From: Ignavibacteria bacterium
Lineage (GTDB): Bacteria > Bacteroidota > Ignavibacteria > Ch128b
NCBI GenBank assembly: GCA_013177855.1
Contig: JABLYA010000001.1
Span: forward strand, 2,000,983 to 2,064,982
Reading direction: 5' to 3'
DNA length: 64,000 nt
In this document: positions 1 through 35,672 of the stretch, one piece after another
How the letters are laid out: the number at the start of each line of letters is the position of its first letter
How positions within the stretch are numbered: position 1 is the stretch's first letter
Position numbers and translations under genes: made by a program
The notes under the pieces: model-generated
Seen by the model: the letters and a program-made list of their open reading frames with translations, nothing else
Databases searched by the model: none
Told to the model about the DNA's origin: nothing

Positions 1-2418
1 ATTATGGCTGCAAATATTTTGCAACTTTATAAGAGGGGATATCGAAATTTTATATTTTTTGTTAATAGTGTAAATATCATTGAGAAAACACGGGATAATT
101 TCTTAAATCCTTTATCAGAAAAGTATCTTTTTGCTCCCAAAATCAAGTTTGGTGAAAAAGAAGTTCTTATAAAAGAGGTTCAAAATTTTGAGGGTGTTAA
201 TTCAGATAACATAAATATAATTTTTACTACAATTCAGGGATTGCATACCAGGCTAAATCAACCAAGAGAGAATGTTTTAACCGAAGAAGATTTTGAAGGA
301 AAAGATATTGTCTTAATTTCAGATGAAGCACATCATTTGCAAACATTAACCAGAAACAATAAAAATGAAAAGGAAATTGAAAAAAGCTGGGAATACACAG
401 TTTTAAAAAGAATATTTGAAAAAAATCGAAAAAATATCTTATTAGAGTTTACTGCTACTGTTGATTTAAATAACCCTGATATCAGAAATAAATATCAGGA
501 TAAGCTTATATTTCAATACGATTTAAAACAATTCAGACTGGACAAGTATTCAAAAGAGATAGAAGTTCTTCAAGCATCTTTAGAGCCAATTGATAGGGCT
601 TTACAGGCAGTTATTTTGAGTCAGTATCGCAGAAAAATTGCTGAAAAGCATAAGATACTCTTGAAACCTGTTATTCTTTTTAAATCAAAGAGTATTAAAG
701 AATCAAAAGAGAATTATGAAAAATTCTTAACTAAGATTAAAAATCTTTCCTTAAAAGATATTGAAAAGATAAAATCAAGGTCATCTGGAACTGATCTGGG
801 AAAGGCGTTTGAATATTTTGATAAAGAAAAAATAACACTTGATAATTTAATTAATGAATTAAAGATAGATTTCTCTGAAGAAAAGATTATGCTTTTGGAT
901 TCTGAGAATATTGATGAAGAGAAACAATTAAAACTTAATTCCCTTGAAAATCCAAACAATGAAATAAGAGCTATTTTTGCGGTCAATATGCTTAACGAAG
1001 GCTGGGATGTATTGAATTTATTCGATATTGTCAGATTGTATGATACACGGGACGGCAAAACTTTAAGAGATGGTACATATATTCCAGGCTCGACGACAAT
1101 GAGCGAAGCACAATTAATAGGAAGAGGGGCAAGGTATTTCCCATTTGTTATACAAAATAATGATGATATGTATCGAAGAAAATTTGATGATGATCTTGAT
1201 AATGAATTGAGAATAATTGAAACTTTACATTATCATTGTAAACATAATCCAAAATACATTTTTGAAATAAAGCAGACACTCACACAAATTGGAATTTTGC
1301 CTGAAAAGACATTTCAATATGACTTATTTGTTAAACCAGAAATAAAAAATAAAAATATTTGGAAAAGGGGATATATTTTTCAAAACGAAAGGCAAAAGAG
1401 GGATCGATCTGAAATTTTTAGTTTAAATGATATTCATATTAAAAATGAATATTATTACGAATTCCCCACTGGTCAAATTGAAGAAAGTTTTTTGTTCGAT
1501 GAACAAAATGTTATTAAATCAAAAACTAATGTAACCGAAATTTATCTTAATTTTCTTGATCTTGGTATAAATTTAATAAGAGCAGGAATGGATTATCTTG
1601 AATTTTATCGTTTCAATAATCTTAAAAGATATTTCCCAAATATTAATTCGATTAATGATTTTATTTTAGATAATAACTATCTGTCAGGAATAAAGGTTAA
1701 GATTAAAGGTCCAGATTTTAGAATTAATGAATTAACACAAAAAGATAAACTAAATATAGTTTTGTATGTTTTGACAAGTATTTCGGAAAAACTCATTACA
1801 ACTGATTCAGAGTATAGAGGAACGAAAGAATTTAAACCATACGAAATAAGTAAAGTCTTCTTTGATAGAAAAGTAAAGTATGATGTTTCAAATGCAGGTG
1901 GAATTAATCTTATTAGTTTCAATTATGATTGGTTTGCACAGACAAGTTTTTATGGTACATCCGAAGAAAGAAATTTTCTTGAATTTATATCAAGATTTAT
2001 AAAAGAGTTAAAAAAGAAATATAAAGAAGTATTTTTATTTAGAAATGAAAGGTATGTTAAGATATATAATTTTGATGATGGATCAGCTTTTGAACCCGAT
2101 TTTATTTTATTTCTCGTAGAGAAACAAAAATCCTCCAGAGGTTCAAAGAAGCGATATAAGTCAACAAAGAATGAGCGAATAATTAGTTACCAAATTTTTA
2201 TTGAACCAAAAGGAGATCTATTTTTAGATGCAAATGGTACATTTGAACATTCGAAAGAAGGTTGGAAGGAAAAATTCCTATTAAGACTTGAAAATGAAGC
2301 TGAAATATTTTTAGAATTTCAAAATTCAGAATACAAACTTTTAGGCTTACCTTTTTATAATCAACAACTTGAAGAAAGATTTCGGGAATTTTTTGAACAA
2401 AAATTATTGAGTCGATAA
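1..2418 (+). CDS. Type III restriction enzyme Res subunit (SF2 helicase + C-terminal PD-ExK nuclease), 5'-truncated by window edge
   Basis: Frame 1 is open from nt 1. A DEAH box (LISDEAHH) lies ~aa 105 with no Walker A upstream, so the N-terminus is off-window. The C-terminus has a PD...ExK-like signature (FEPDFILFLV ... FIEPKGD), as in Type III Res endonuclease domains. Confidence 0.55.
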   Translation: MMAANILQLYKRGYRNFIFFVNSVNIIEKTRDNFLNPLSEKYLFAPKIKFGEKEVLIKEVQNFEGVNSDNINIIFTTIQGLHTRLNQPRENVLTEEDFEGKDIVLISDEAHHLQTLTRNNKNEKEIEKSWEYTVLKRIFEKNRKNILLEFTATVDLNNPDIRNKYQDKLIFQYDLKQFRLDKYSKEIEVLQASLEPIDRALQAVILSQYRRKIAEKHKILLKPVILFKSKSIKESKENYEKFLTKIKNLSLKDIEKIKSRSSGTDLGKAFEYFDKEKITLDNLINELKIDFSEEKIMLLDSENIDEEKQLKLNSLENPNNEIRAIFAVNMLNEGWDVLNLFDIVRLYDTRDGKTLRDGTYIPGSTTMSEAQLIGRGARYFPFVIQNNDDMYRRKFDDDLDNELRIIETLHYHCKHNPKYIFEIKQTLTQIGILPEKTFQYDLFVKPEIKNKNIWKRGYIFQNERQKRDRSEIFSLNDIHIKNEYYYEFPTGQIEESFLFDEQNVIKSKTNVTEIYLNFLDLGINLIRAGMDYLEFYRFNNLKRYFPNINSINDFILDNNYLSGIKVKIKGPDFRINELTQKDKLNIVLYVLTSISEKLITTDSEYRGTKEFKPYEISKVFFDRKVKYDVSNAGGINLISFNYDWFAQTSFYGTSEERNFLEFISRFIKELKKKYKEVFLFRNERYVKIYNFDDGSAFEPDFILFLVEKQKSSRGSKKRYKSTKNERIISYQIFIEPKGDLFLDANGTFEHSKEGWKEKFLLRLENEAEIFLEFQNSEYKLLGLPFYNQQLEERFREFFEQKLLSR

Positions 2419-2979
2419 CCCATTAAAAACGATATTTTTTATCTTTAATAGTAAATTTCTATCTCTTTCAATTAACTTTATCTCTTTTTCACTCAAAATT
2501 GTCTCTTTTAACCTCATTGATGACTCTTTTCCAATAAACGATGGCTCTTTTTCACTTAACGATGCTTCTTTTTCACTCAACGATGGCTCTTTTTCAGTCA
2601 ACGATGGCTCTTTTTCAGTCAACGATGGGTCTTTTAGAACCAACGATGGGTCTTTTTCATTCAAAATTGGCTCTTTTTTACTCAACGATGGGTCTTTTAG
2701 AACCAACGATAGGTCTTTTTCATTCAAAATTGGCTCTTTTTTACTCAACGATGGGTCTTTTAGAACCAACGATGGGTCTTTTTCATTCAAAATTGGCTCT
2801 TTTTCACTCAACGATGGGTCTTTAAGAACCGACGATGGGTCTTTTTCACTCAAAATTGGCTCTTTTTCACTCAACGATGGGTCTTTAAGAACCAACGATG
2901 GGTCTTTTTCATTCAAAATTGGCTCTTTTAGACCCAACGATGGCTCTTTTTCACTAAAAACCGTTAATTTTTTGTTCAA
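2404..2979 (-). CDS. Heptad-repeat low-complexity protein (K(E/D)PxL(x)x repeats), hypothetical
   Basis: 191-aa ORF translated from the tandem repeat (EKEPILN/EKDPSLV/LKDPSLS...). The repeat length is a multiple of 3 and the ORF has a non-repetitive C-terminal tail. It overlaps the Res gene 3' end convergently by 15 nt. There is no signal peptide and no clear RBS, so its coding status is uncertain. Confidence 0.4.
   Translation of the reverse strand: MNKKLTVFSEKEPSLGLKEPILNEKDPSLVLKDPSLSEKEPILSEKDPSSVLKDPSLSEKEPILNEKDPSLVLKDPSLSKKEPILNEKDLSLVLKDPSLSKKEPILNEKDPSLVLKDPSLTEKEPSLTEKEPSLSEKEASLSEKEPSFIGKESSMRLKETILSEKEIKLIERDRNLLLKIKNIVFNGLSTQ
2461..2960. repeat. Coding tandem repeat: 21-bp primary unit (~23 copies) organised into a 63-bp higher-order unit (~8 copies)
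   Basis: Direct reading: aacgatgg(g/c)tcttttt(c/a)(a/t)t(t/c)caa units recur every 21 nt. 'attgg' recurs at 2666, 2729 and 2792, giving a 63-bp period. The period is a multiple of 3. Confidence 0.9.
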
Positions 2980-3345
2980 AAAAAGCTTTTTTCAGCGAGT
3001 TTTTTGGGTTTCCAGAATAAATAATTGTGCTTTAATCTTAAATTATGAAACAAAAGAGTTAATAAATTCCTACTAATTATCCAATAATTAATTTCATATC
3101 ATTTTTTTTTGATTATTTTTTCCTCAATTTTTAATTCCAGAATGTTTAATATTTCTACATAACCTACTTGAATTTTTCAACACCCCTAAACATTGAAAAA
3201 TCAAACAATTATAATTTTTTTAGCTTAGTATGTGATTAAAATTTCAACATTCCTTTATACAAATACAATTTTAGGTTTTCCCTTTTGTCTCTATATCTAT
3301 TTGTAATTTAAGGAGTTACGCTCATAATTCATCTCAGCGTTTTTC

Positions 3346-3360
3346 TGGCATTGCGTTTGA
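3346..3360 (+). promoter_or_regulatory. Candidate sigma54 (-24/-12) promoter: TGGCAT-N5-TTGA
   Basis: TGGCATTGCGTTTGA, with GG at 3347-3348 and TTGa where TTGC is expected at -12 (one mismatch in the GC dinucleotide). It lies ~55 nt upstream of the operon start at 3414, and a sigma54-dependent activator is encoded at 9324. Confidence 0.25.
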
Positions 3361-3413
3361 CCTTATATAATAGAAATAGTTGAATTAGAAACTAAAAAAT
3401 TGAGAGGTTAAAA

Positions 3414-4103
3414 ATGGTTGCATTATTTGTCTTATTAACTTTCGTTCTTATCATTTCAATAAACTTAATTGTCACGAAAGTTCGTGAAAAACGAATTTCG
3501 GTCTTTGAGGAAACTCAACCAGAGCCGGTCACTGGAACCGTATTTTCAAAAGAATCCATCTATGTCCCTCAGGGATTATATTATTCCAGAGGACACACCT
3601 GGCTCAATTTTTCTGAAGATGGTAAAATTAAACTCGGTATAGATGATTTTATCAACAAAGTATTAAAGCCAGGTAAAATATCTCCACTTAAAGCCGACGG
3701 CGATAAAATTTCGAAAGGCGAGCCGATCTTTGAAGTCTTTGCCAATGGAAGGAAAGTGAAAATTTATTCTCCTGTTGACGGCATTATTACTTCGCTAAAT
3801 AAATCAATCCTCGAAAATACTCAGCTGCTTAGAGAAAATCCTTATCGAGAGAATTGGTTAATTGAAATTGAACCAGCTGATGTAAAGGAAATTCTGCCAT
3901 CATTTAAGATTGGTAGAGAAGTTGTCAACTGGATGAAAGAGGAAGTAAACCGTTTCAAAGATTTGCTTGCCCATCTATCACCTAAACCATCGCTCGTCGG
4001 TGCAACACTTTATGATGGTGGAAATATCGTTGAAGGTGTTCTTAGAATGCTTGATGACAGCAGTCTTTCAAAATTCGAAGAAGAATTTCTGAAATTATCC
4101 TGA
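3414..4103 (+). CDS. Membrane-anchored glycine-cleavage-H-like (lipoyl-domain-like) protein
   Basis: N-terminal TM helix followed by K/R residues, so the domain is cytoplasmic. The region YYSRGHTWL..GKIKLGIDDF..G..ISKGEPIFEVFANGRKVKIYSPVDGII..N..L...P.LLRENPYRENWLIEI aligns motif-for-motif with GcvH (HEW, GITDxAQ, ESVKA..YAPVSG, PY..GWI), including candidate lipoyl-Lys positions. RBS gagagg precedes the start. Confidence 0.65.
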   Translation: MVALFVLLTFVLIISINLIVTKVREKRISVFEETQPEPVTGTVFSKESIYVPQGLYYSRGHTWLNFSEDGKIKLGIDDFINKVLKPGKISPLKADGDKISKGEPIFEVFANGRKVKIYSPVDGIITSLNKSILENTQLLRENPYRENWLIEIEPADVKEILPSFKIGREVVNWMKEEVNRFKDLLAHLSPKPSLVGATLYDGGNIVEGVLRMLDDSSLSKFEEEFLKLS

Positions 4104-4121
4104 AAAACCTGAGGTAGAAAG

Positions 4122-4898
4122 ATGAAAAGAAAAGCATTTCTGATTGATATAACCGAATGTGTCGGCTGCGGGGCTTGTTATGAAGCCTGCAAAGAACAAA
4201 ACAATCTTCCTCAAACTTCTGATGACCCTTTAAGGGATTCGCTCTCTGATAAAACATATACAATTGTTGAACAGCGAGGCGATTTCTTCGTGAGAAGAAT
4301 GTGTCAGCATTGTGAAGATCCAACCTGCGTTTCTGTTTGTCCTGTTGGTGCATTTACAAAGACTGAAGTTGGTGCAGTTCTTTACGATGAATCTAAATGT
4401 CTTGGATGCCGCTATTGTATGCAAGCCTGTCCATTCCAGATTCCGAGATATGAATGGGGCAGCGTGAAACCGAGAGTGCAAAAATGCATTATGTGTTATG
4501 ACCGAGTTAAGAATGGAGAACTGCCAGCCTGTGCGGAAGCCTGTCCAACTGGTGCAACCTTATTCGGTGATAGAGATGAGATGATTGAGATTGCAAAACA
4601 GAGACTCGCTGAAAATCCGGAAAAGTATTATCAGCATATTTATGGGCTTGAAGAAGTCGGCGGCACATCGGTTTTATATATTTCACCAGTACCATTCGAA
4701 GAACTCGGTTTCAATACAAAGTTATTGAAGACAGCTCTTCCAAATTTCACTCACGAAGCTTTAGCGAAGATTCCAACACTGGTAACAGTCGGCGGTGTAT
4801 TATTGACAGGTTTCTATTGGTTAACTAATCGAAAGAATGAAATTGCACGAGAAAAATTTGAGGAAAAGAAAAAACAAAACTTACGAGGTGAGGAATGA
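4122..4898 (+). CDS. NrfC/PsrB/HybA-type 4x[4Fe-4S] ferredoxin subunit with C-terminal TM anchor; no Tat signal
   Basis: Four Cys clusters (CVGCGACYEAC; CQHCEDPTCVSVCP; CLGCRYCMQACP; CIMCYDRV...CAEACP). A C-terminal hydrophobic helix (IPTLVTVGGVLLTGFYWL) is present. The N-terminus is MKRKAFLIDITE without an RRxF motif. Confidence 0.8.
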   Translation: MKRKAFLIDITECVGCGACYEACKEQNNLPQTSDDPLRDSLSDKTYTIVEQRGDFFVRRMCQHCEDPTCVSVCPVGAFTKTEVGAVLYDESKCLGCRYCMQACPFQIPRYEWGSVKPRVQKCIMCYDRVKNGELPACAEACPTGATLFGDRDEMIEIAKQRLAENPEKYYQHIYGLEEVGGTSVLYISPVPFEELGFNTKLLKTALPNFTHEALAKIPTLVTVGGVLLTGFYWLTNRKNEIAREKFEEKKKQNLRGEE

Positions 4899-6085
4899 AT
4901 CCAGCAATTGAAAGACTTCTCAAACCAACATTCTGGAAAGTTGTTGGAACTGTAATTTTTGTTCTTGGACTATATACGATCTATTTGAGATTTACAGGCG
5001 GACTTGCAGCAGTAACTAATTTAAATGATCATTTCCCCTGGGGATTGTGGATTGGTTTTGATATTCTTTGTGGAGTTGGAATGGCTGCCGGTGGTTTTAC
5101 GCTTTGTGCAATTGTCTACATCTTTAATATCAAAAAATTTAAACCAATCATTCGTCCAACTATATTAACTGCTTTTCTCGGATATTTACTTGTAATATTA
5201 GCTCTTCTGATAGATCTTGGAAGACCCTGGGCAATATGGCATGCAATAATTATGTGGAACCCAAGATCGGTTATGTTTGAAGTTGCCTGGTGTGTGATGC
5301 TTTATACTACTGTTCTTTTTCTTGAATTCAGTCCTGTTATACTTGAAAGATTTAAAGTTGAAAAGCTATTAAAAATAATTCGAGGAATAACAATCCCGCT
5401 TGTAATTCTGGGAATTTTACTTTCCACTCTTCATCAATCTTCACTTGGAGCTTTGTATTTAATTGTTCCGAGTAAAATGCATCCATTATGGTATTCAACA
5501 AATCTTCCATGGTTTTTCTATTTGAGTGCGATAGGTGTTGGCTGTGCGATGATAATTTTTGAATCATATCTCAGCGCCAAAGCATTTAAGAAAAATCTTG
5601 AATTTGATCTGGTCTCCGATGTTGGAAGATGGATTGTGGTTGTAATGAGTGCATATTTAACATGGAGATTTATGGATTTACTTTTGAATGATAAACTTAA
5701 TCTTTTGTTTGTAAATTCTATTGAAACATATCTCTTCTGGCTTGAGATAATTATTGGTGCAATTATTCCAATAATTTTGCTTGCTCAACCAAGAATAAGA
5801 TTAAATCGTGTGGGACTATTCGTATCTGCGTGTTTTGTAATTGGTGGATTTTTACTGAATAGATTGAATGTGAGTGTGACATCTCTTCAAGCATCATCGG
5901 GAGTTTCTTATTTCCCATCGGTGTATGAAATTATAATAACATTATTCCTTGTAACCTTAGGAGTAACTATCTTTAATCTTGCAGTCCAATATCTGCCTGT
6001 TTATGAAAAAACAAAAGAAACAATTCCAATTGAATTCGAAGTTATTTCTGACGATGAACTAAAGACAGAACCAGCAACAAAATGA
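4895..6085 (+). CDS. NrfD/PsrC/HybB-family integral membrane quinone-interacting subunit
   Basis: ~396 aa with 8-10 predicted TM helices and NrfD-like conserved stretches (WGLWIGFDILCGVGMAAGG; LGRPWAIWHAIIMWNPRSVMFEVAW). Its start overlaps the previous stop by 4 nt. Confidence 0.8.
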   Translation: MNPAIERLLKPTFWKVVGTVIFVLGLYTIYLRFTGGLAAVTNLNDHFPWGLWIGFDILCGVGMAAGGFTLCAIVYIFNIKKFKPIIRPTILTAFLGYLLVILALLIDLGRPWAIWHAIIMWNPRSVMFEVAWCVMLYTTVLFLEFSPVILERFKVEKLLKIIRGITIPLVILGILLSTLHQSSLGALYLIVPSKMHPLWYSTNLPWFFYLSAIGVGCAMIIFESYLSAKAFKKNLEFDLVSDVGRWIVVVMSAYLTWRFMDLLLNDKLNLLFVNSIETYLFWLEIIIGAIIPIILLAQPRIRLNRVGLFVSACFVIGGFLLNRLNVSVTSLQASSGVSYFPSVYEIIITLFLVTLGVTIFNLAVQYLPVYEKTKETIPIEFEVISDDELKTEPATK

Positions 6086-6783
6086 GTTTAAAAATGATTT
6101 CTCAAAAATGTATCTGGATGGAATGTGGTTATGTCGAGTACAAACTATGCGATAGGAATTTTGACTGCGAGAACTGTCCATTTGATAAATCAATTAAGGC
6201 TGAAAGAGGAAACCGCTTTATCTCAGATTCAATAAAAAACAAAAGGGATATCAGCGAAATAAAAATTACACCAAATCATTTATGGTTTTATAAGAATGGC
6301 AATGTTTTCACTTTCGGGCTTGATAACTTTGCTCAGAAATTTTTTAATTCTGGCTGTTCGATTCACTTGCCTTTACTAAATTCAAGACTTTTTTCTGGTA
6401 AGACTATTCTATGGATTATTGGATCATTTGGTGCAATTGGGTTTCACTCACCGGTCAATGGTTCAGTTTTATGGATTAATGAATCGATTAAAGATAATCC
6501 ATCTTTGTTTTTTGAAGCTGATCCTTTTTCAATTGAACTTATAAAGGTTGAAAGCGATGACGATAAAATTGAAGGCAAAATTTATGATTTTAATGATTAC
6601 AAAGATTTAGTTTATCAGGATAATCTTCTGGCTCGTGAATTCTTATTAAAAAGATTTACAATTTCTGGTGATGGAATTTCTACGCTTCCTGATGGTGGCG
6701 ATTTAAAAATGGATTACTTAAAAACATTGTCCAATCAGGATTTTATTCAACTTTTAAAACTATTATTCAACAAAAAAATATAG
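6082..6783 (+). CDS. Cys-rich N-terminal motif + second GcvH-like domain protein (no lipoyl-Lys), hypothetical
   Basis: N-terminus CIWMECGYVEYKLCDRNFDCENCPFD (5 Cys: Cx4Cx7Cx5Cx2C). It is followed by HLWFYKNGNVFTFGLDNFAQ...GSFGAIGFHSPVNGSVLWINESI..NPSLFFEADPFSIELIKV, a GcvH-like pattern lacking Lys at the lipoylation position. An ATGA overlap with the NrfD-like stop implies translational coupling. Confidence 0.55.
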   Translation: MSLKMISQKCIWMECGYVEYKLCDRNFDCENCPFDKSIKAERGNRFISDSIKNKRDISEIKITPNHLWFYKNGNVFTFGLDNFAQKFFNSGCSIHLPLLNSRLFSGKTILWIIGSFGAIGFHSPVNGSVLWINESIKDNPSLFFEADPFSIELIKVESDDDKIEGKIYDFNDYKDLVYQDNLLAREFLLKRFTISGDGISTLPDGGDLKMDYLKTLSNQDFIQLLKLLFNKKI

Positions 6784-6795
6784 GGAGAAACTGTT

Positions 6796-7311
6796 ATGAA
6801 AAAACTTCTGATATTAGCACTCTCAATAATTATATGTTCTTCTTACAATCTCTTTGCTCAGAATAAATATGTTGGTGTAAAAACCTGTATGGCCTGTCAT
6901 AAAGGCGAGAAGGGAAAGATGGTTTACGAGAACTGGTTGAAGACAAAACATGCTCAAGCTTACAAAACACTCGAAACACAAAAATCAAAAGACATTGCAA
7001 AGAAGATGAACTTAAAATCTGATCCAACTGAAGCACCAGAATGTTTAAAATGTCATGCAACAGGTTATTTCCCTGGTGAACAGACAATGTCTACAAATAA
7101 AAAAGAAGATGGCGTAACCTGTGAAGCCTGTCACGGACCAGGCTCTGCTTACAAGAACAAACACGGAAAAGAAAAAACTGAAGAAGGTAAAAAACTCGGT
7201 TTAGTAATAGGTACTGACGACGAAAAGATTTGTAAAAAATGTCATAACCCTGAAAGTCCAACCTTCGCTGGATTTAATTACAAAAAAGACTGGGAAAAAG
7301 TTAAACACTAA
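6796..7311 (+). CDS. Periplasmic tetrahaem cytochrome c (c3-like)
   Basis: Signal peptide MKKLLILALSIIICSSYNLFA. Four CXXCH motifs are present (CMACH, CLKCH, CEACH, CKKCH) in 171 aa. RBS ggga precedes the start. Confidence 0.85.
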   Translation: MKKLLILALSIIICSSYNLFAQNKYVGVKTCMACHKGEKGKMVYENWLKTKHAQAYKTLETQKSKDIAKKMNLKSDPTEAPECLKCHATGYFPGEQTMSTNKKEDGVTCEACHGPGSAYKNKHGKEKTEEGKKLGLVIGTDDEKICKKCHNPESPTFAGFNYKKDWEKVKH

Positions 7312-7370
7312 AAATTTTTTGAATGTAAGCTTAGTTTCAAATTAGTTGATTAATTTCTTTAAAATATTAT

Positions 7371-7467
7371 GGTTTTCTCGATACAGTTCTTTAGAGATTT
7401 AATTTTAATTAGAAGTTTATCCGAGAGGTTTTTTATTTAAGGGTTAGGTGACTGTATCGAGAGAACC
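7371..7467. promoter_or_regulatory. 17-bp near-perfect inverted repeat (ggttttctcgatacagt / actgtatcgagagaacc) separated by 63 nt
   Basis: Seen directly: arms at 7371-7387 and 7451-7467 with one mismatch. The pair sits in the 341-bp gap between the cytochrome operon and the sensor kinase, and the right arm is followed by a T/A-rich run. Confidence 0.4.
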
Positions 7468-7655
7468 TTTAATTAAAATTCCCGCAGATAAAAAGTTGAA
7501 TTTAAGTTCAGTAATAAAAGTAGAAAAAAAATAAATTCAGAATAGAATTAATAAATCAGACTGAATAAATCCTATCTCCGATAAAATAGTTATTAATTGT
7601 TAATTGTAACTTCTTCCCATTCTCTTTAAGTTTACAGTGAGGAGAGGAAAATGTG

Positions 7656-9314
7656 ATGGAAGAAAAAAATAATTTCGAACAGGTGAATTCATCTCAGGGC
7701 AAGTCAGAAAATTCAAGGAAAACTTGTTTCTGCAAGACCTTAGCTTTTAAGTTATTTATAAGCCTTATCTTTTTATTCATTATAATCTTTTTTATTACAA
7801 CTGTAATTCTCATCGATCAAAACAAAAAGCAGATTTTTGAAATAGTAGAGAAAAATATCATACGAACTGGTGATATTATAAAACGCTCGACAAGATACTC
7901 AATGCTTTTAAACCGAAGAGAAGATGTGTATCAAATAATCAAAACAATAGGGAATGAAGAGGAAGTCGCTGGAATAAAAATCTACAATAAACTCGGAATT
8001 GTCTCTTTTGCACACATTGATACTTTGATTAATCGAAAAGTTGATATGAATTCAGAAGAATGCTCGCCCTGTCATTCTATCAATAATCCCAAACTTTACA
8101 TTACAACCGATGAAAGAATAAGAATATTTCAAAACGAAAAAGGCGAAAGAATCATTGGATTAATTATTCCTATCGAAAATGAACCTGATTGCTGGAATAG
8201 TTCCTGTCACGCCCACAATGAACAGCAAAGAATTCTTGGTGTGATCGATGTTCAAATGTCCCTGAACTCAGTTGATAAAATCATTCAAAAAAATAAAAGC
8301 AGCCTTATCTTTTATTCTATTTTAATTACAATGATTGTTTCCATTTTTAGTGGAATTTTTATCTGGTTAATGGTTCATTTAAGAGTTAAAAATTTAATAA
8401 GAGGCACAAAAGAACTTGCTAAAGGTAATTACAACTTCCGAATAAATTTAAAATCGAATGATGAGCTTGGTGAATTGTCAAAAGATTTCAACTATATGGC
8501 TGAAAATTTAAAGAAAGCTCTCGAAGAGATTAAAGCTTTGAATGAAAATCTTAATATCAAAGTAAAAGAGAAAACTCATCAGCTCAAAGAAATTTATAAT
8601 CATGTTAATCAAATTGAAAGAATTGCATCGCTCGGAAAACTTTCCGCCACGGTTGCTCACGAACTAAATAACCCGCTCGAAGGAATTTTAACTTATTCGA
8701 AACTGATTATAAAAAAACTAAACAACAATGTAACGGACGAAGAAAAGAAAAAAATTATTCAGTATTTAGAATTAATTGCAGCTGAATCAGAAAGATGCGG
8801 GAATATTGTTAAAAACCTGCTTCTCTTTTCGAGATCAGGTGAAACTAAAGTCGCTCAAAATGATCTGATTAACATTATTGAAAGAGGTTTAATGCTTATA
8901 AATCATCACCTCCAGCTTAATAACATTCATCTGATAAAAGACTTTTGCTGCAATTATCTTGAATTCGAATGTGATAAAAATCAAATACAGCAAGCAATCC
9001 TGGCAATTTTAATTAATGCTATTGAAGCAATGCCGGAGGGTGGAACATTAACAGTAAAAGTTACTTGTGATGGAAGCTTGGTATTCATTCAAATTACTGA
9101 TACAGGAGTTGGAATCCCCAAAGAAAATCTAGATAAAATTTTTGAACCATTTTTTTCGACAAAACCGGGTGGAAAAGGAACTGGTCTCGGATTATCAGTT
9201 GTCTATGGTATTGTTAAACAACACAACGGAAAAATTGAAATTCAAAGTGAGGTTAATAAAGGCACTACAGTTACTCTCATTTTTCCTAAAAAAGCAGTTG
9301 CAGAAATGGGATGA
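7656..9314 (+). CDS. Sensor histidine kinase with periplasmic haem-c-binding motifs (CXXCH + CX4CH), HAMP, HisKA, HATPase
   Basis: TM1 at ~aa 33-55. The periplasmic segment contains CSPCH and CWNSSCH. TM2 is followed by a HAMP region, an H-box ([15 protein letters not shown]) and G-boxes (DTGVGIP, GTGLGLS). ATG at 7656 is preferred over the GTG at 7653 because of the RBS gaggagagg. Confidence 0.8.
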
Positions 9315-9323
9315 GGTAAAATT

Positions 9324-10667
9324 ATGAATAATTCAGATGTAAAAATTTTAATTGTTGATGATGAACAAATTGTCAGAGAATCTCTCACTCACTGGTTTGA
9401 AGAAGATGGTTATCAGGTAAGCTCTGCTGCCGATGCGTTCGATGTGTTGAAAGATCTTCATCCAGGCAAGTATGATATTATGCTGGTCGATATTAAGATG
9501 CCAAAGATGAGTGGATTGGAACTGCTTGAAAAAGTTAAAGAAATTGATCCCGATTGCATTGTAATAATTATCACTGCCTATGCTTCAGTACCTTCTGCAG
9601 TTCAAGCTTTGAAGAATGGCGCTTTTGATTATGTAACCAAACCAATTGATCCAGATGAACTATCGCACCTGATAAAAAATGCAATCAAACAAAAAAAGTT
9701 GAAAGAGGAGAATGTTGCACTTAAAGCAAGCATTGATGAAATGTTCAGTTTTGAAGGATTGATTGGTGAAAGTCCCGAGATGAAAAAAGTTTTCGAATTG
9801 ATAAAAATTGTTGCACCACAGGATACAACTGTTATGATTCGAGGAGAAAGCGGAACAGGGAAAGAATTAATTGCTCGTGCAATTCATATGAATTCACCAA
9901 GGAGGTATTATCCCATAATTCCGGTTAATTGCGGTGCATTTACAGAGACACTTCTTGAAAGCGAACTTTTTGGACACGAGAAGGGAGCTTTTACAGGTGC
10001 TCAATACCGCAGAAAAGGTAAAATTGAAATGGCAAACGGTGGGACACTTTTTCTGGATGAAGTCGGAAGTGTCTCTCAAAAAATGCAGGTAGAATTACTT
10101 CGTGTACTTGAAACAAAACAATTCACTCGTGTTGGTGGAACTGAGATTGTAAAAGTAGATTTCCGATTAATCTCTGCAACAAACGAAAATCTTGAAAGAC
10201 TTGTTGAAGAAGGAAAATTTAGAGAGGATTTGTATTACCGTTTGAATGTTTTTACAATTTATGTCCCGCCGCTCAGGGAGAGAAGAAGTGATATACCTGT
10301 CCTTGCAAATTATTTTGTTCAGAAATTTGCCCGACAGATGAATAAACCAATCTTGAAAATTTCAGATGAAGCGATGGAAATACTTTTGAATCATTCCTGG
10401 CCTGGAAATGTTCGTGAACTTGAAAACGCAATTGAAAGAGCAATGGTAGTTGGAAAACCACCTGAAATAAAACCTTCCGATTTGCCTTTCCACTTAGAAA
10501 AAGTTAATTCGTTTGAGAGTGATTCCCTTGAAGAGGTAGAGAAAAAACACATCCAGAGAGTGCTGAGTAAATATGACTGGAATATCTCAAAAGCGGCTCA
10601 AGCATTAAACATTGATCGAGTAACCCTGTACAATAAAATCAAAAAGTATGGCTTACAGAAAAATTAA
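9324..10667 (+). CDS. Sigma54-dependent response regulator (NtrC/AtoC family): receiver + AAA+ sigma54-activation + HTH
   Basis: Receiver (ILIVDDE, D at DIKMP), Walker A (GESGTGKE), GAFTGA motif, Arg-finger region, and a C-terminal Fis-type HTH. RBS gaggtaaa precedes the start. Confidence 0.9.
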   Translation: MNNSDVKILIVDDEQIVRESLTHWFEEDGYQVSSAADAFDVLKDLHPGKYDIMLVDIKMPKMSGLELLEKVKEIDPDCIVIIITAYASVPSAVQALKNGAFDYVTKPIDPDELSHLIKNAIKQKKLKEENVALKASIDEMFSFEGLIGESPEMKKVFELIKIVAPQDTTVMIRGESGTGKELIARAIHMNSPRRYYPIIPVNCGAFTETLLESELFGHEKGAFTGAQYRRKGKIEMANGGTLFLDEVGSVSQKMQVELLRVLETKQFTRVGGTEIVKVDFRLISATNENLERLVEEGKFREDLYYRLNVFTIYVPPLRERRSDIPVLANYFVQKFARQMNKPILKISDEAMEILLNHSWPGNVRELENAIERAMVVGKPPEIKPSDLPFHLEKVNSFESDSLEEVEKKHIQRVLSKYDWNISKAAQALNIDRVTLYNKIKKYGLQKN

Positions 10668-10670
10668 TTT

Positions 10671-11195
10671 ATGGATCAAGCCGCTCTAATTTTATTAAAT
10701 TTTAATGCTGTCTCACTTTACGATAAAATTACAAATAACCTTAAACAACATTTCAACTTAAATTCAAGAACAATTATCCCGGATATTGATTTAAGAAAAT
10801 TTTATTCAGAAGAACGTGATCAATATTATTCGACAAAGTTAATTGAGTATGCACTCTTAAATTATTCAGAATTTAAGAAGATTTTAATGATTACCGACTT
10901 CGACCTTTATGTTCCAGTCTTGACATTTGTTTTTGGTGAGGCTCAATTAAATGGAAAAGCGGCTATTGTATCAGCACACAGACTCTATCCTGAATTCTAT
11001 GGTTTACCACCTAATGATGAGCTGTTTATATCAAGATTGATAAAAGAAATAAATCACGAACTTGGGCATACCTATGGTTTGCGTCACTGCTTCAATTTCG
11101 AATGCGTAATGCATTCTTCGTCAAATGTTGATGAAATCGATATAAAGTCTGAAAACTTTTGTAATAAATGTTTGGAAAAACTTAATCTCTTTTGA
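10671..11195 (+). CDS. amzA: Archaemetzincin-family zinc metallopeptidase (M54)
   Basis: HELGHTYGLRHCFNFECVMH-x16-CNKC matches the archaemetzincin signature HExxHxxGxxHCx4CxMx17CxxC. It starts 4 nt after the RR stop. Confidence 0.7.
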   Translation: MDQAALILLNFNAVSLYDKITNNLKQHFNLNSRTIIPDIDLRKFYSEERDQYYSTKLIEYALLNYSEFKKILMITDFDLYVPVLTFVFGEAQLNGKAAIVSAHRLYPEFYGLPPNDELFISRLIKEINHELGHTYGLRHCFNFECVMHSSSNVDEIDIKSENFCNKCLEKLNLF

Positions 11196-11204
11196 GTGGA
11201 TCAT

Positions 11205-11915
11205 CCCGAAGCTTTGCGTTCTTTGTATCTTCGCGTTTTAATTCATTTTCAACATTCATTCTTCAATAATATCATCCCTTCGAAATTTTAATTTTTTGGT
11301 TGTATTTTCATTCCTATAATAATTTCATCCCTTCGGGATTTTATTTTTTTTGTTGCATTTTCATTTCTATAATAATTTCATCCTTTCAGGATTTTTTGAG
11401 TGATAGATATAACTTCTTTCCAAAATTAACATATCTAATCTTTGCGAACCTTTGCGTTCTCTGCGTCTTTGCGTTTGAAAGAATTTTAGACTTTAATTCT
11501 TCAAAAATTTCATCCCTTCGGAATTTTAATTTTTTGGTTGCATTTTCATTTCTATAATAATTTCATCCTTTCAGGATTTTTTTTGAGTGATAAATAAAAT
11601 TTCTTTCTAAACTAAAAAACTAATCTTTGCGAAACTTTGCGTTCTTTCCGTCTTTGCGTTTGAAAGAATTTTTGACTTTACTTTTTCAATAATGTCATCC
11701 CTTCGGGATTTTAATTTTTTTTGTTGCATTTTCATTTCTATAATAATTTCATCCCTTCGGGATTTTAATCTATTTATTGCTTCTTCATTTCTATAATAAT
11801 TTCTTCCTTTCAGGATTAGACTTTTTGGGGATAAATTTTTTTCAAAAACTAAATCAAATGATCTTTGCGAAACCTTGTGTTCTTTGCGTCTCTGCGTTTG
11901 AAGAATCATTTACAC
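11205..11915. repeat. Intergenic composite repeat array: ~4 degenerate copies of a ~195-230-bp unit, each with a (c)tttgcg-rich block and 2-3 short tetraloop hairpins followed by T-runs
   Basis: tctttgcgaa..ctttgcgttct.tgcgtctttgcgtttgaa blocks begin at ~11213, 11438, 11634 and 11862. Hairpins atcccTTCGggat+tttaatttttt and atcctTTCaggat+tttttt recur 8+ times. ORFs 11300-11557(+) and 11607-11909(-) lie over the repeats and are likely spurious. Confidence 0.8.
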
Positions 11916-16602: not shown

Positions 16603-17274
16603 ATGAGAATACTTCTTGTTGAAGACGAAAAGAAAGTTGCTTCATTTATTAAAAAAGGACTTGAAGAAGAATATTATACTGTTGATGTTGCGTATGATGG
16701 AAAAGAAGGCAGTAAACTTGCCCTTTCTGAAGAGTATGATTTGATAATTTTAGATTTAATGCTTCCCTATAAAGATGGAATCAATATTTTAAAAGAGATA
16801 CGCGATGCAAAGCTTTCGGTACCTGTGTTAATTTTAACAGCGAAAGGATCAGTTCAAGATAAAGTAACCGGTCTCGATTCTGGCGCGGACGATTATTTGG
16901 CTAAACCATTTTCTTTCGATGAGTTACTTGCAAGAATAAGAGCACTTCTAAGAAGATATTCAACAGAAAAATCTATCTTACTAAAAGCTGATGATTTAAA
17001 GATGGATTTACAATCTCGAAAAGTTTTTAGAGGGAATAAAGAAATTCAATTAACTTCAAAAGAATTTTCTATCCTCGAATATCTATTAAGAAATAAAAAT
17101 CGTATCGTGACAAGGACAAAGTTAATAGAACATATTTATGAATATAATTTTGATCCGGAAACAAATTTAATTGATGTTTACATTAATAAACTTCGAAACA
17201 AAATTGATAAAGGATTTGATAAACAACTAATACACACAATTCGCGGCGCGGGTTATATACTAAAAGATGATTAA
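16603..17274 (+). CDS. OmpR-family response regulator (receiver + winged-helix)
   Basis: MRILLVEDE...D(LMLP)...K, and a C-terminal trans_reg_C region (LTSKEFSILEYLLRN..., RGAGYIL). Confidence 0.9.
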   Translation: MRILLVEDEKKVASFIKKGLEEEYYTVDVAYDGKEGSKLALSEEYDLIILDLMLPYKDGINILKEIRDAKLSVPVLILTAKGSVQDKVTGLDSGADDYLAKPFSFDELLARIRALLRRYSTEKSILLKADDLKMDLQSRKVFRGNKEIQLTSKEFSILEYLLRNKNRIVTRTKLIEHIYEYNFDPETNLIDVYINKLRNKIDKGFDKQLIHTIRGAGYILKDD

Positions 17275-28938: not shown

Positions 28939-30201
28939 ATGAAAAATAGCAAACCAAAAGTCATAATTATTGGCGGTGGATTTGGTGGACTTGCCGCTGC
29001 AAAAAAGCTAAAAAATAAACCAGTTGATGTGATATTAATCGATAAAACCAATCATCATCTTTTTCAGCCTTTATTGTATCAGGTTGCAACTGCTGGTTTA
29101 TCGCCTGCTTACATTGCTTTCCCATTAAGAAGCATTTTTAGAAAATCAAAAAATGTTCGTGTGATTCTGGGTGAAGTAAAAAGAATAGATCGAAAAGAAA
29201 AGAAAGTTTATTTGAATGGTGAAAATTATTCTTATGATTTTCTGATTGTTGCTGTGGGCGCAAAACATCACTATTTCGGTAAAGATGAATGGGAGAAGAT
29301 TGCACCTGGATTAAAAACTCTTCAAGATGCAATTAACATCAGAGAAAAGATTTTACTCGCATTTGAAAAAGCTGAAAGAATAAATGACCCTGAGGAGCAA
29401 CAGAAATATCTTAATTTTATTGTCGTTGGTGGTGGACCTACTGGAGTAGAAATGGCTGGAGCAATTGCAGAGATTGCAAGAAAAACTTTGATTGAAGATT
29501 TCAAGAAAATTGATCCAACAAAAGCTAAAGTTTATTTAGTTGAGGCGCTTGACAGAGTTCTGCCAACTTATCCGCCGAAACTTTCACAAAAGGCAAAGGA
29601 AGATTTAGAGAAACTTGGAGTAAAAGTTTTATTAAATACAAAAGTTACTGACATTAATAACGATTGCGTGAAGTTAAATGGAAAAGAAATTAAGGCAGCA
29701 ACAATTATCTGGGCAGCTGGAAATAAAGCAAATCCATTAGTTCAGCAACTCAATTGTGAGCTAGATAGAATGGGTCGTGCAATTGTTTCACCATATTTGC
29801 ATTTAAAGGATGATGAAAGCGTTTTTGTAATTGGTGATGCAGCTGCAGTTTATGATGAGAAAGGAAATACATTGCCTGGAGTTTCTCCTGTTGCAATTAC
29901 TGAAGGAAGATATGTTGCGAAATTTATTCTGAGAAAATTAAAGAACAAAAGTTCTAAACCTTACAAATATTTTAATAAAGGAAGTCTTGCAACAATTGGA
30001 AAAGCAAAAGCAGTCGCAGATTTTGGATGGTTACGATTTAGTGGATTCTTCGCCTGGCTTTTGTGGGTTTTCGTTCACATCTTCTTCTTAATTGGATTTA
30101 AAAATCGATTTATTGTGATGATAGAATGGATTTTTGCATACTTTACATATCAAAAAAGTGCACGATTGATTGTTGGTGAAAAGAAAATAATTGATGAATA
30201 A
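28939..30201 (+). CDS. ndh: Type II NADH:quinone oxidoreductase (NDH-2)
   Basis: Two GxGxxG dinucleotide folds (IIGGGFGGLAAA; VVGGGPTGVEMAG) and a C-terminal amphipathic/membrane tail. Confidence 0.85.
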   Translation: MKNSKPKVIIIGGGFGGLAAAKKLKNKPVDVILIDKTNHHLFQPLLYQVATAGLSPAYIAFPLRSIFRKSKNVRVILGEVKRIDRKEKKVYLNGENYSYDFLIVAVGAKHHYFGKDEWEKIAPGLKTLQDAINIREKILLAFEKAERINDPEEQQKYLNFIVVGGGPTGVEMAGAIAEIARKTLIEDFKKIDPTKAKVYLVEALDRVLPTYPPKLSQKAKEDLEKLGVKVLLNTKVTDINNDCVKLNGKEIKAATIIWAAGNKANPLVQQLNCELDRMGRAIVSPYLHLKDDESVFVIGDAAAVYDEKGNTLPGVSPVAITEGRYVAKFILRKLKNKSSKPYKYFNKGSLATIGKAKAVADFGWLRFSGFFAWLLWVFVHIFFLIGFKNRFIVMIEWIFAYFTYQKSARLIVGEKKIIDE

Positions 30202-33520: not shown

Positions 33521-34354
33521 TCAGTTAGTTATTAAGAGTACTTTTGTTAAAGCTGTATATGTCTTATTTCTATAATTAAAAACAATTTCATCGTTTGGAG
33601 AAACTGATTCTTTGCCCAGGAAAGCATCGATTGCATTAAATACGAGATCAAAATTTCTTTTTAATTCCCAACTTTTTTCTGGATTATTTTGATCAAATAA
33701 AACTACAAATAGTCTATTATCAGCACCAAATCTTTGCTCTCCTTGATTTTCATACATCCATTTAGCTAAGTCAATGGGAGTGTTAATTGCATTTAACGGA
33801 TTATAACCCTTTGGAAGGTAGGTTATTTTCAAATCAAATGGTTGCCCATCAAAAAAAATATCAATGCCTTTTATGTTTTTTATAGTTGGAATTACTTTTG
33901 GATGCTGACTTATGTGTTCTTCAATTAGCACGGTTGTCCAGTGGTTAAACCAAGTACATATTACATAGTTTGTAACCTCATTATGAAGTTTTGAAGTTAC
34001 CTCATTAATTAAATCATTGTAGCGAACAAATTTCCTTACGAATTCAATTTGTATCTTTTGATCTAACTGACCTTGAACAACACCCCAGTTAAAAGATTTA
34101 ACATTTAATAACTCCCGTTTTAGGTCGTTATCAGAAATAATTTGCTTACGTTTTTGAACTTTCTCATTATATTTTTGTTTGATAAACTGATCAATTTTAG
34201 TTTCATCTGGATTGCTGTTTAAAATACTGGCAATAATCTTGGATGAAGTTCCAGCATTAGAAATATTTAAATTCTTAGCAAGTATCTTTAAATGTAATGA
34301 TGGAATACTTTTTAATTTTAAGTTTAATACTTCTTTTTTACTATATAGAGGCAT
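33521..34354 (-). CDS. Putative Type II restriction endonuclease (partner of adjacent MTase)
   Basis: 277-aa orphan-like ORF 12 nt downstream of the MTase. Candidate PD-(D/E)xK signature GIDIFFDGQPFDLKITY. AT-rich, K/N/I-rich composition. Confidence 0.35.
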   Translation of the reverse strand: MPLYSKKEVLNLKLKSIPSLHLKILAKNLNISNAGTSSKIIASILNSNPDETKIDQFIKQKYNEKVQKRKQIISDNDLKRELLNVKSFNWGVVQGQLDQKIQIEFVRKFVRYNDLINEVTSKLHNEVTNYVICTWFNHWTTVLIEEHISQHPKVIPTIKNIKGIDIFFDGQPFDLKITYLPKGYNPLNAINTPIDLAKWMYENQGEQRFGADNRLFVVLFDQNNPEKSWELKRNFDLVFNAIDAFLGKESVSPNDEIVFNYRNKTYTALTKVLLITN

Positions 34355-34365
34355 TAAATTATTTC

Positions 34366-35499
34366 CTATTTTTTCTTAAATAAAAAGATATATTCATGCT
34401 TAAAAACATAAAATCCACCAACTAAAGCCCTATATCTCCATAGTTCTTTTTGACTTCTTTTACCTCTTGTCTCTTCGAAGTTTTTTACTATTATACTTTT
34501 TAAACTATAACTTCTCTTTAAGACTTCCTGCATACAATAAAATCCTAAAGGTATCCATTCACCCTTTGAGTATTTGTCACCGATAACCAAGACGAGATAT
34601 CTACCTCGCTCTAAATAAGAAGTGGTGTTATCAATTACTTCACCGAACATTTCTAAAAATTTATCAACGCTAATAGCATTAGAGAGATCATTTTCTTGAT
34701 TTGAAAATTTGATAATATCATGATAAGGAGGATGCATTATTATAAGTTGAAACTGTTTTATTCCATATTTATTAAGAATTCTTTTAATGTCTATTGTTCT
34801 TGAATCACCAATTATTACGTCAGTGATAATATTATATCTGTTTTCCTCTTTATTAATTAATTCTTGAGATCTTTTCGCGACTTCAGGGTTTAATTCAATT
34901 CCAATTCCATTTCTACCAAGTCTTTTACATTCAATTAAGGTTGTTCCACTACCAACGAATGTATCTAAAACCCAATCGCCTTTTTTAGTATATCTTATCA
35001 TCATTTGATGCGGGATTTGAGGAATGAAATTACCCCAGTACCAACCATTATGAACTCCAGACGAATCTCTTTTATCTAATATCCAAAGACTGTCAGTAAT
35101 AATATTGTCATATTCTTTCCATCTAAGAAGATTTATATCATTTATTTTACTGGTTTTAACTTTTTGAATCCCTTCTCTTAATCTGTTTATATAATATTTT
35201 GCTCTCTCTAAAGTTTGTGATTCCAAAATTTGATTTAAATCTGAAATAAGGATGTCTTTGCGAATTGATATTGTATCGCCATTCGTATCAATATTTAAAA
35301 GTCCTTCCTCATCTTTTCTAAAGTGAGTAATAATATTAATTATAAAAAAAATTTTATTTCTTATAATATCAATTTGATTCGCTTCTAAAATTTCTGACAA
35401 AATTTCTATAAACTTATCTTTATTTAATATTACCCTTACATTCTTTTTTGAATTCACATCATTATCAAAAAATAAATTGTCTGCATCAAATGACGCCAT
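34366..35499 (-). CDS. DNA methyltransferase (N6-adenine/N4-cytosine family) with motif I (LDTFVGSGTT) preceding motif IV (HPPY)
   Basis: The FxGSGTT...GIELNPE block is typical of N4/N6 MTases, and IIMHPPYHD is a (D/N/S)PPY variant. Start chosen at MASFDAD (35499) because a perfect AAGGAG RBS lies 8 nt upstream; the longer MEFF start lacks an RBS. Confidence 0.65.
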   Translation of the reverse strand: MASFDADNLFFDNDVNSKKNVRVILNKDKFIEILSEILEANQIDIIRNKIFFIINIITHFRKDEEGLLNIDTNGDTISIRKDILISDLNQILESQTLERAKYYINRLREGIQKVKTSKINDINLLRWKEYDNIITDSLWILDKRDSSGVHNGWYWGNFIPQIPHQMMIRYTKKGDWVLDTFVGSGTTLIECKRLGRNGIGIELNPEVAKRSQELINKEENRYNIITDVIIGDSRTIDIKRILNKYGIKQFQLIIMHPPYHDIIKFSNQENDLSNAISVDKFLEMFGEVIDNTTSYLERGRYLVLVIGDKYSKGEWIPLGFYCMQEVLKRSYSLKSIIVKNFEETRGKRSQKELWRYRALVGGFYVFKHEYIFLFKKK

Positions 35500-35672
35500 A
35501 TAAAATCTCCTTGTTTCTTTGAAAAACTCCACTCAAAATTATAAACATTTTTCAATCATTTCTTTAATTTTTTTTGAACAAATATAAACTTAAAAAACCT
35601 GAATGATTTATAGGACTATTTATCTCGATTTTGGTTCTTTCAGATTTTATTTTCTTGAACAAATATAAAAGC

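Follow-up and report, generated by a model that had tools for sequence, protein, structure and literature searches.

The stretch analysed here (the window, 64,000 nucleotides of contig JABLYA010000001.1 from the metagenome-assembled genome of an Ignavibacteria bacterium, numbered from its first letter) carries at positions 3414-7311, on the plus strand, five genes that form one operon behind a conserved promoter of the sigma-54 type. The products of these open reading frames (ORF1-ORF5), denoted G1-G5, are predicted to comprise a quinone module of the NrfCD type (G2 and G3), two paralogs with the H-protein fold that have lost the lipoyl lysine (G1 and G4), and a periplasmic tetrahaem cytochrome c (G5). 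The functional unit reaches past these five genes, to about 3346-11195, and takes in the promoter together with conserved downstream genes for a sensor histidine kinase, a sigma-54-dependent response regulator and an archaemetzincin-type Zn peptidase (M54). An initial annotation of this DNA had recognized the five ORFs at these positions and on this strand, and had read them as a single operon in which an NrfCD-type module is joined by two GcvH-fold proteins and a periplasmic tetrahaem cytochrome; all of this is borne out, although the unit was drawn too short, without the promoter, kinase, regulator and M54 genes. Few quinone-coupled units of anaerobic respiration are as widespread as the NrfCD-type modules; outside a few model organisms, little is known of their accessory subunits and regulation. 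The literature searches brought up no description of a cassette that unites the GcvH-fold pair, NrfCD, a dihaem kinase, a sigma-54 regulator and M54; the initial annotation, for its part, could name no described complex that pairs a lipoyl carrier with an NrfCD module and a c3 cytochrome.

The GcvH-fold proteins G1 and G4

G1 (ORF1, 3414-4103) and G4 (ORF4, 6082-6783, likely true start 6094; the product is identical to NCBI HPY57_08425) both match pfam GCV_H above the gathering score (E-values of 1.3e-17 and 6.4e-07, respectively), as G2 and G3 match Fer4_11 and NrfD, the other two profiles anticipated by the initial annotation. Both proteins fall below the cut-off of the NCBIfam GcvH equivalog (TIGR00527 / NF002270; 62.5 and 32.7 bits, respectively, against 115.85). 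An AlphaFold2 model of G4 (mean predicted local distance difference test score of 78.5) is matched by Foldseek to H-proteins with the probability of 1.0, and the H-protein fold is assigned to both G1 and G4. An hhalign comparison of the two families (probability of 99.9%, E-value of 1e-31, 190 columns) identifies them as paralogs. What they share extends over a long helix and over a C-terminal part that is centred on an invariant DGG motif and left uncovered by Pfam.

The column of the lipoylated lysine at the hairpin tip (K of ESVKA in the Escherichia coli GcvH reference sequence) contains lysine in one of 29 G1-family sequences (3%) and in none of 24 G4-family sequences (0%). In the window, this column is occupied by Gly in G1 and by Phe in G4; across the families, Gly or Asn is found in the former, and Phe, Trp or Glu in the latter. 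The lysines of G1 that had been put forward as candidate lipoylation sites lie away from the lipoyl position and are not conserved, whereas the reported lack of the lysine in G4 holds for the protein and for its family alike. The alignments contain no conserved cysteine within the GcvH domains of either family. We read G1 and G4 as proteins of the H-protein fold that have lost the lipoyl lysine and are probably not the lipoyl or sulfur carriers that they had been taken for. Because the defining feature of a lipoyl carrier is missing, the names GcvH and LbpA should not be used for them, and the automatic label ‘glycine cleavage system H protein’ is hereby corrected. They further differ from GcvH and LbpA in their extra parts (TM helix or Cys4 mini-domain, long helix and DGG C-terminal region; TM, transmembrane) and in their surroundings, with no genes for T-, P- or L-protein, hdr or lipoate ligase found nearby. 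The pair would represent a large and clean case in which an H-protein gave up its cofactor site and gained a new role.

As had been noted, G1 is membrane-anchored: it contains one N-terminal TM helix (TM helices were predicted throughout by a simple hydropathy scan), located at the very start of the protein and unusually conserved in sequence (M1, L4, F5, V6, T9). A cluster of lysine and arginine residues (K/R) follows this helix, so that the N-terminus is predicted to face outward and the H-protein-fold domain, with the long helix and the DGG region, to be cytoplasmic. G4 has no signal peptide and is likewise predicted to be cytoplasmic; a cysteine-rich mini-domain with the N-terminal motif C-x-W-M...Y-K-L-C-D-R-x-F-x-C-E-x-C-P-F-D replaces the TM helix. 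Only four cysteines are conserved (C10, C23, C29, C32; Cx12Cx5Cx2C), and these, together with a TLPDGG motif, are invariant in the G4 alignment; from the previously proposed Cx4Cx7Cx5Cx2C cluster, the fifth cysteine drops out as non-conserved. The mini-domain has no sequence match in Pfam or the PDB. In some proteins of the G4 family (P0288, P0326 and P0338), which also share a further N-terminal motif, MKCPFLE..YCKA, it occurs in 2-4 tandem copies and thus appears to be an independent, repeatable unit. It probably binds a metal, as an Fe-S or Zn site. Each cassette encodes at least one member of the TM type and at least one of the Cys type (80 and 82 proteins in all, respectively), and the Cys-type family comprises 462 clusters at 50% identity (E <= 1e-30). 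Two apparent fusions, of GcvH with a cytochrome (P0026) and of G1 with G2 (P0146), were rejected as a truncation chimera and a frameshifted read-through, respectively.

Conservation of the cassette and its link to signalling

A scan of 185,579 species genomes, queried with the two most conserved G4 peptides, yields 139 loci, so that the cassette is present in at least 139 species-level genomes; the best 80 loci were retrieved, and 48 well-flanked ones (each of at least 15 kb, from about nine phyla) were used for a gene census by phmmer. ORFs in these loci were called mechanically, from the first start codon after a stop. The relatives are metagenome-derived and come nearly all from uncultured organisms, which belong to Ignavibacteria, Bacteroidota, Acidobacteriota, Planctomycetota, Calditrichota, KSB1, Desulfobacterota/Syntrophaceae, Gemmatimonadota and Eisenbacteria. 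A metagenome scan seeded with a G4 from a minimal cassette (see below) returned a single short fragment.

Downstream of ORF5, the window encodes a sensor histidine kinase (7653-9314, plus strand), in which a TM helix is followed by a periplasmic domain of 168 amino acids, a second TM helix, and HAMP, HisKA and HATPase domains. The periplasmic domain contains two putative c-haem sites, CSPCH and CWNSSCH; the corresponding CxxCH and Cx4CH motifs, about 43 residues apart, are conserved in 65 of 68 homologs, which indicates that this domain is a predicted dihaem c-type sensor. The next gene (9324-10667, plus strand) encodes the sigma-54-dependent response regulator (Sigma54_activat, 2.1e-71; Response_reg, 1e-32; HTH_8, 2.3e-15), and the M54 peptidase gene (10671-11195, plus strand; Peptidase_M54, 1.4e-29; motif HELGHTYGLRH) begins 3 nucleotides after its end. 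Among the 48 well-flanked loci, 46 contain NrfCD genes and 46 contain the kinase and regulator genes; the kinase, regulator and M54 genes occur together in 41, and all seven core genes in 39. The association with the kinase and regulator holds whether their operon is co-directional with the G1-G4 genes or convergent on them. In the loci with NrfCD, the genes overlap or are tightly spaced.

Two independent assemblies, represented by a 3.6-Mb contig (L087) and a 1.9-Mb contig (L088), carry a minimal cassette that consists of a sigma-54-like promoter followed by the genes for G1, G4, the dihaem kinase, the regulator and M54; NrfCD genes are absent from the 10 kb that flank the M54 gene on each side. 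A third locus (L052) is similar. In one protein (P0335), a HisKA+HATPase core of another kinase class is joined to a complete Cys4-GcvH-DGG module. Two contigs, which come from two samples, encode the identical protein, in both cases behind a G1-like gene, and its H-box type differs from that of the cassette kinase, so that the fusion did not result from deletion of a neighbouring gene. The cassettes without NrfCD and the kinase fusion on the one hand, and two loci without a nearby kinase (L022 and L061) on the other, suggest that the cassette is centred on the pair, whose ties to the quinone module and to the two-component system are about equally strong. In view of the former two observations, G1 and G4 are read as cytoplasmic accessory or sensory subunits.

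Several loci show other features around the cassette. In five Ignavibacterium loci (L055, L067, L069, L071 and L085; positions about 1100-4600, minus strand), a second, divergent NrfCD pair lies directly upstream of the cassette; its NrfC has a genuine signal for twin-arginine translocation (Tat), and a gene for a 13-haem cytochrome is present as well. In a 4.46-Mb genome (L001), two genes for multihaem-cytochrome/cytochrome-b fusions (CbcL-like) and one for a NapC/NirT-family multihaem protein (ImcH-like) precede the cassette (1294-7747), and the start of a NiFe-hydrogenase small-subunit gene (16751-16798) follows it; these surroundings suggest a link of the cassette to extracellular electron transfer. 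Two cassettes from Blastocatellia (L075 and L084) are decayed or misassembled, with internal deletions, and were left unused; in L084, the conserved N-terminus of G1 (MVALFV...) is joined in frame to the kinase.

The quinone module

G2 (ORF2, 4122-4898, plus strand) is a protein of the NrfC/HybA/HmcB/FdnH type. It matches pfam Fer4_11 with an E-value of 2.4e-27 and, below the respective cut-offs, NCBIfam HmcB (4e-81) and HybA (1.5e-58); the alignment to HmcB begins at model position 37, so that the leader is missing. Sixteen cysteines are arranged in four ferredoxin motifs, CVGCGACYEAC, CQHCEDPTCVSVCP, CLGCRYCMQACP and CIMC..CAEACP, each expected to hold a [4Fe-4S] cluster. The best match in the PDB is FdnH (4e-40). 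G3 (ORF3, 4895-6085, plus strand) is a predicted quinone-interacting membrane subunit of the NrfD family (pfam NrfD, 5.2e-24) with 10 TM helices, which belongs to the HybB/HmcC/NhcC clade. The closest NCBIfam models are HmcC (1.8e-102) and HybB (7e-92), but the scores stay below the equivalog cut-offs (343.5 against 550 bits and 308.8 against 450 bits, respectively). Thus, G2 and G3 can be assigned from their sequences to the HybAB/HmcBC-like NrfCD-type quinone modules, with G3 as a distinct subfamily and the module as an equivalog of none of the named complexes.

The quinone site of HybB (D58, D109, S129 and E133) and its proton pathway have been listed, and mutation of R89, Y99, E148 or H184 impairs Hyd-2 (PMC8076601). 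G3 aligns with E. coli HybB over the full length with 32% identity, and of the 25 listed positions, 20 are conserved (16 identical residues and four conservative replacements). The retained positions include D56, D107, S125, E129, R87, Y97, E144, E151, H180, K194, E284 and R323, among which R87, Y97, E144 and H180 correspond to the four HybB residues with a mutational effect.

No molybdopterin, hydrogenase, haem-copper or Hdr subunit is found among the 39 window ORFs scanned against Pfam, which include all those of at least 200 amino acids, and no recurring catalytic partner adjoins the cassette in the 80 related loci, where no other flanking family is present in more than nine. The lack of a catalytic subunit nearby is thereby upheld, and a conserved partner of known function, which would have spoken against a new module, does not appear, just as the GCV_H match does not fail. 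The lack itself is less unusual than had been supposed, given that NrfCD-type modules may act alone with soluble periplasmic partners (PMC6303296). The only other gene for a quinone-linked enzyme seen in the window encodes a type II NADH dehydrogenase (28939-30201; Pyr_redox_2 plus NDH2_C).

Sidedness of G2 and G3

The loops of G3 that are assigned to the cytoplasm contain about 20 K/R residues and the periplasmic ones six, by a hand count; an automatic count over nine TM helices gives 16 and eight, respectively. In 18 relatives of G3, all from cassettes with a Tat-less G2, the protein continues beyond its core of 10 TM helices with an 11th such helix and then a trihaem domain of the c type. 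Given this K/R bias and the requirement that the fused trihaem domain be periplasmic, G3 has the canonical orientation with the N-terminus inside. Its quinone site is accordingly placed, as judged from the HybB-like sequence, on the periplasmic side; electron exchange between that site and a cytoplasmic G2 would be impossible, as G3 itself contains no redox cofactor.

G2 lacks a signal peptide and has only 11 residues before the first cluster motif. A C-terminal TM helix (residues 213-231) is followed by the tail NRKNEIAREKFEEKKKQNLRGEE, which contains eight K/R residues; such a tail is common to G2 and its Tat-bearing relatives, and in 17 related cassettes the counterpart of G2 has a genuine RRxFLK Tat signal. 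The best PDB match, FdnH, resembles G2 in its four [4Fe-4S] clusters, in its C-terminal TM helix and in lacking its own signal peptide; its Fe-S domain is periplasmic, and it crosses the membrane by means of the Tat signal of its partner FdnG. The initial annotation was correct that G2 is Tat-less and anchored at the C-terminus. Its conclusion that the clusters face the cytoplasm is probably wrong and here considered doubtful, in view of the orientation of G3, the periplasmic quinone site, the K/R-rich tail, the Tat-bearing relatives and the similarity to FdnH. On balance, there is a modest preference for a periplasmic G2. A Tat-less Fe-S subunit beside a canonically oriented NrfD protein nevertheless makes a puzzle.

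The cytochrome G5 and its variation

G5 (ORF5, 6796-7311, plus strand) matches pfam Cytochrome_C554 (PF13435; 1.4e-19) and the cytochrome c554 structure 1bvb in the PDB (4.5e-10). With a hydrophobic N-terminal leader and four CxxCH motifs (at residues 31, 83, 109 and 146), it can be assigned to the c554 family as a tetrahaem cytochrome with predicted Sec export and haem attachment. The periplasmic, tetrahaem character had been recognized before, but under the name of a cytochrome c3-like protein, which does not hold. Similarity to NrfH is far below the cut-off (TIGR03153, 0.0099), so that G5 does not qualify as a NapC/NirT-type cytochrome. The protein is an accessory present in only some cassettes: a separate gene of the G5 type occurs in 16 loci, and the trihaem domain at the C-terminus of G3 takes its place in the 18 loci mentioned above; in Planctomycetota, a gene for a 13- to 16-haem cytochrome lies downstream, and many cassettes of Bacteroidota and Ignavibacterium include no cytochrome.

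Operon structure and promoter

The five genes are closely packed. ORF1 and ORF2 are separated by 18 nucleotides and lie in the same frame; two in-frame TGA codons, together with a good ribosome-binding site, exclude stop-codon read-through from the former into the latter. ORF2 and ORF3 overlap by 4 nucleotides (ATGA), with a strong GAGGTGAGGA ribosome-binding site ahead. A second overlap of this length, reported between ORF3 and ORF4, exists only if ORF4 starts at 6082; most homologs and the NCBI call use the next ATG, at 6094, which leaves a gap of 8 nucleotides after ORF3. ORF4 and ORF5 are 12 nucleotides apart.

A -24/-12 promoter of the sigma-54 type, TGGCAT-N5-TTGAC (3346-3361, plus strand), lies 53 nucleotides upstream of the ORF1 start codon and is the sole match to this sequence in the 64-kb window, against 0.02 expected. 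The TGGCA and TTGAC elements are invariant across eight Ignavibacteria loci in which the surrounding sequence is otherwise poorly conserved, and in related loci a sigma-54-like site is located 46-69 nucleotides upstream of the first cassette gene. In other phyla, the canonical TGGCAC-N5-TTGC is present in 19 of 75 upstream regions, compared with about 1.6 expected. Scans for sigma-70 promoters and terminators perform no better than on shuffled sequence, and Rfam has no matches in 2400-11400. The locus thus has the kinase, the receiver/AAA+ activator and the -24/-12 promoter of a sigma-54 two-component regulon, in which activation is predicted; the adjacency of the genes suggests that the regulator acts on the promoter at 3346-3361.

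The 340-nucleotide gap between the cytochrome and kinase genes contains a nearly perfect hairpin (7371-7467) with arms of 17 nucleotides that are 94% complementary and a predicted RNA fold of -32.8 kcal/mol (z = -2.6). A clean U-tract does not follow, and Rfam offers no match; the hairpin possibly serves as a terminator or attenuator between the two transcription units.

Proposed model and alternatives

These observations can be combined in a tentative model, to which, taken as a whole, we assign a little less than an even chance: the cassette would comprise a quinone:cytochrome c module and a non-lipoylated accessory or sensory pair that is coupled to the kinase and to sigma-54 control. At the periplasmic site of G3, menaquinol would be oxidised or menaquinone reduced, with protons passing through the conserved HybB-type channel, and the four [4Fe-4S] clusters of G2 would conduct electrons, in one direction or the other, between the quinone and a periplasmic c-type cytochrome, in this case the tetrahaem G5. 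G2 and G3 would thus act as a quinone:cytochrome c oxidoreductase that needs no further catalytic subunit, in the manner of Cbc4 from Geobacter or Nhc from Desulfovibrio. On the cytoplasmic side, G1 with its membrane helix and G4 with its Cys4 mini-domain would couple this module, the cytoplasmic redox state, or both to the products of the signalling genes; the dihaem kinase would signal to the sigma-54 response regulator, which would turn on the G1-G5 operon from the -24/-12 promoter, and the M54 peptidase would be co-transcribed with the signalling genes. A bolder version, for which the chances are distinctly poorer, holds that the pair is a new class of signal-input module, placed at the cytoplasmic face of an NrfD-type quinone module. 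The kinase, which also reads the periplasmic redox state by its two c-haems, would receive from it information on respiratory flux, the state of the quinone pool or, via an Fe-S center in the Cys4 mini-domain, the cytoplasmic redox state. The cassette would then be a two-sided redox sensor governing its own respiratory branch, and the H-protein fold would have been recruited from a cofactor carrier to a signalling adaptor. In either form, the cassette is a candidate route for coupling a respiratory branch to a two-component system.

Several observations weigh against the model. The -12 element in the window, TTGAC, departs from the canonical TTGC. G2 is without a signal peptide not only in the window but also in about 56 related loci, and the export route known from FdnH is not available in the same form, as no Tat-bearing counterpart of FdnG is encoded in the cassette or the window. 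The contacts of G1 and G4 with G3 and with the kinase are presumed. The cassettes without NrfCD number three only, and NrfCD genes might be located elsewhere in those genomes; the kinase fusion represents a single lineage among the best 150 of the 462 strong family members that were inspected. Finally, the well-flanked loci L022 and L061 contain G1-G4, including NrfCD, with neither kinase nor regulator nearby. The last observation also fits an explanation in which G1 and G4 have a purely structural or gating role at the cytoplasmic face of the NrfCD complex, where they might cap or regulate the cytoplasmic half-channel for protons in G3 or lend stability to the TM anchors; the kinase and regulator would provide local transcriptional control only. 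The tight coupling of G1-G4 in one operon with NrfCD, the presence of NrfCD in 46 of the 48 well-flanked loci and the conserved sequence of the G1 helix, suggestive of specific packing, all suit this explanation. It does not account for the NrfCD-less cassettes that retain G1, G4, the kinase, the regulator and M54, nor for the fusion of the Cys4-GcvH module to a kinase core in P0335, and the linkage to kinase and regulator is as strong as that to NrfCD; overall, we regard it as rather unlikely.

Further from the data is the view closest to the initial annotation, that a cytoplasm-facing, Tat-less G2, a lipoyl- or sulfur-carrying G1 and a Cys-rich G4 form a cytoplasmic electron or sulfur relay, which G3 joins to the periplasmic cytochrome. 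The signal-less G2 without a Tat-bearing partner and the predicted cytoplasmic location of G1 and G4 agree with it; a cytoplasm-facing complex of the NrfCD type, SoeABC, is known (PMC8076601), and the lipoate-binding LbpA proteins are reported to act in sHdr sulfur oxidation (PMC6067878). A relay of this kind is nonetheless improbable: the lipoyl lysine is absent and unconserved, and the GcvH domains have no conserved cysteine; G3 is not inverted and has no membrane-spanning cofactor, which leaves its periplasmic quinone site too far from a cytoplasmic cluster chain; the 17 cassettes in which G2 has its own Tat signal keep the same cytoplasmic pair; and the tail of G2 after the TM helix is K/R-rich, as in exported relatives. 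Moreover, hdr, dsrE, tusA and lipoate ligase genes are all absent among the 39 scanned ORFs of the window, and no hdr-like or lipoate ligase gene recurs in the 80 loci. Very little probability is given to the proposal that G1 and G4 are biogenesis factors, i.e., dedicated chaperones that accompany G2, once loaded with its cofactors, to the membrane, or else substrates or adaptors of M54 in a regulated proteolysis that controls the kinase. Such a role would make sense of the unexplained export of G2, of the position of G1 directly ahead of G2 in all Tat-less arrangements, and of the conservation of M54 in 41 of the 48 loci and in the minimal cassettes, but G1 and G4 are equally present where G2 bears a Tat signal and where NrfCD is absent, and it is synteny alone that ties M54 to the pair.

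Relation to known systems

The respiratory core can be classified by sequence as a new subfamily of the known NrfD modules with 10 TM helices (HybAB, HmcBC, NhcBC and QrcCD). E. coli HybA/HybB and Desulfovibrio HmcB/HmcC and NhcB/NhcC share with it a 10-TM membrane subunit with the N-terminus inside and a C-terminally anchored subunit with four [4Fe-4S] clusters; they differ in that the cassette has no hydrogenase and no 9- or 16-haem cytochrome, and adds two cytoplasmic GcvH-fold proteins. HybA, in addition, carries the Tat signal that G2 lacks. A counterpart in composition is the Cbc4 complex (CbcSTU) of Geobacter sulfurreducens, a putative quinone:cytochrome c oxidoreductase in which a tetrahaem cytochrome c is combined with a protein bearing four [4Fe-4S] clusters and an integral membrane subunit devoid of cofactors (bioRxiv 10.1101/2025.04.14.648717). 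The cassette has the same three parts and likewise no catalytic subunit. CbcS is a membrane-anchored cytochrome of the NapC/NirT type, whereas G5 is a soluble one of the c554 type, and no GcvH-like genes, dihaem kinase or M54 are reported for Cbc4 (bioRxiv 10.1101/2025.04.14.648717). With respect to regulation, the Geobacter CbcBA operon for an inner-membrane quinone oxidoreductase has a sigma-54 promoter, an adjacent gene for the sigma-54 response regulator BccR, which controls it, and redox-dependent induction (bioRxiv 10.1101/2021.04.15.440034). The likeness is regulatory only, as CbcBA consists of a dihaem b and a multihaem c cytochrome rather than NrfCD, and the system includes no GcvH-like proteins; the kinase described here has a dihaem periplasmic domain of its own.

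Other features of the window

Just upstream of the cassette, a tandem repeat (2482-2955) has periods of 21 and 63 nucleotides in 22.6 and 6.5 copies, respectively, with 91% matches for the 63-nucleotide unit. On the minus strand, it encodes an ORF of 191 amino acids (2404-2979) made up of heptad repeats of the KDPSL/EKEPIL type. Upstream of the repeat region, at the left edge of the window, lies an ORF of 804 amino acids with a ResIII (type III restriction/helicase) domain (4-2418). Within 33521-36929 on the minus strand, an N6/N4 DNA methylase gene (34366-35532) is located between two ORFs without a Pfam match, and this region may be a restriction-modification or defence islet.

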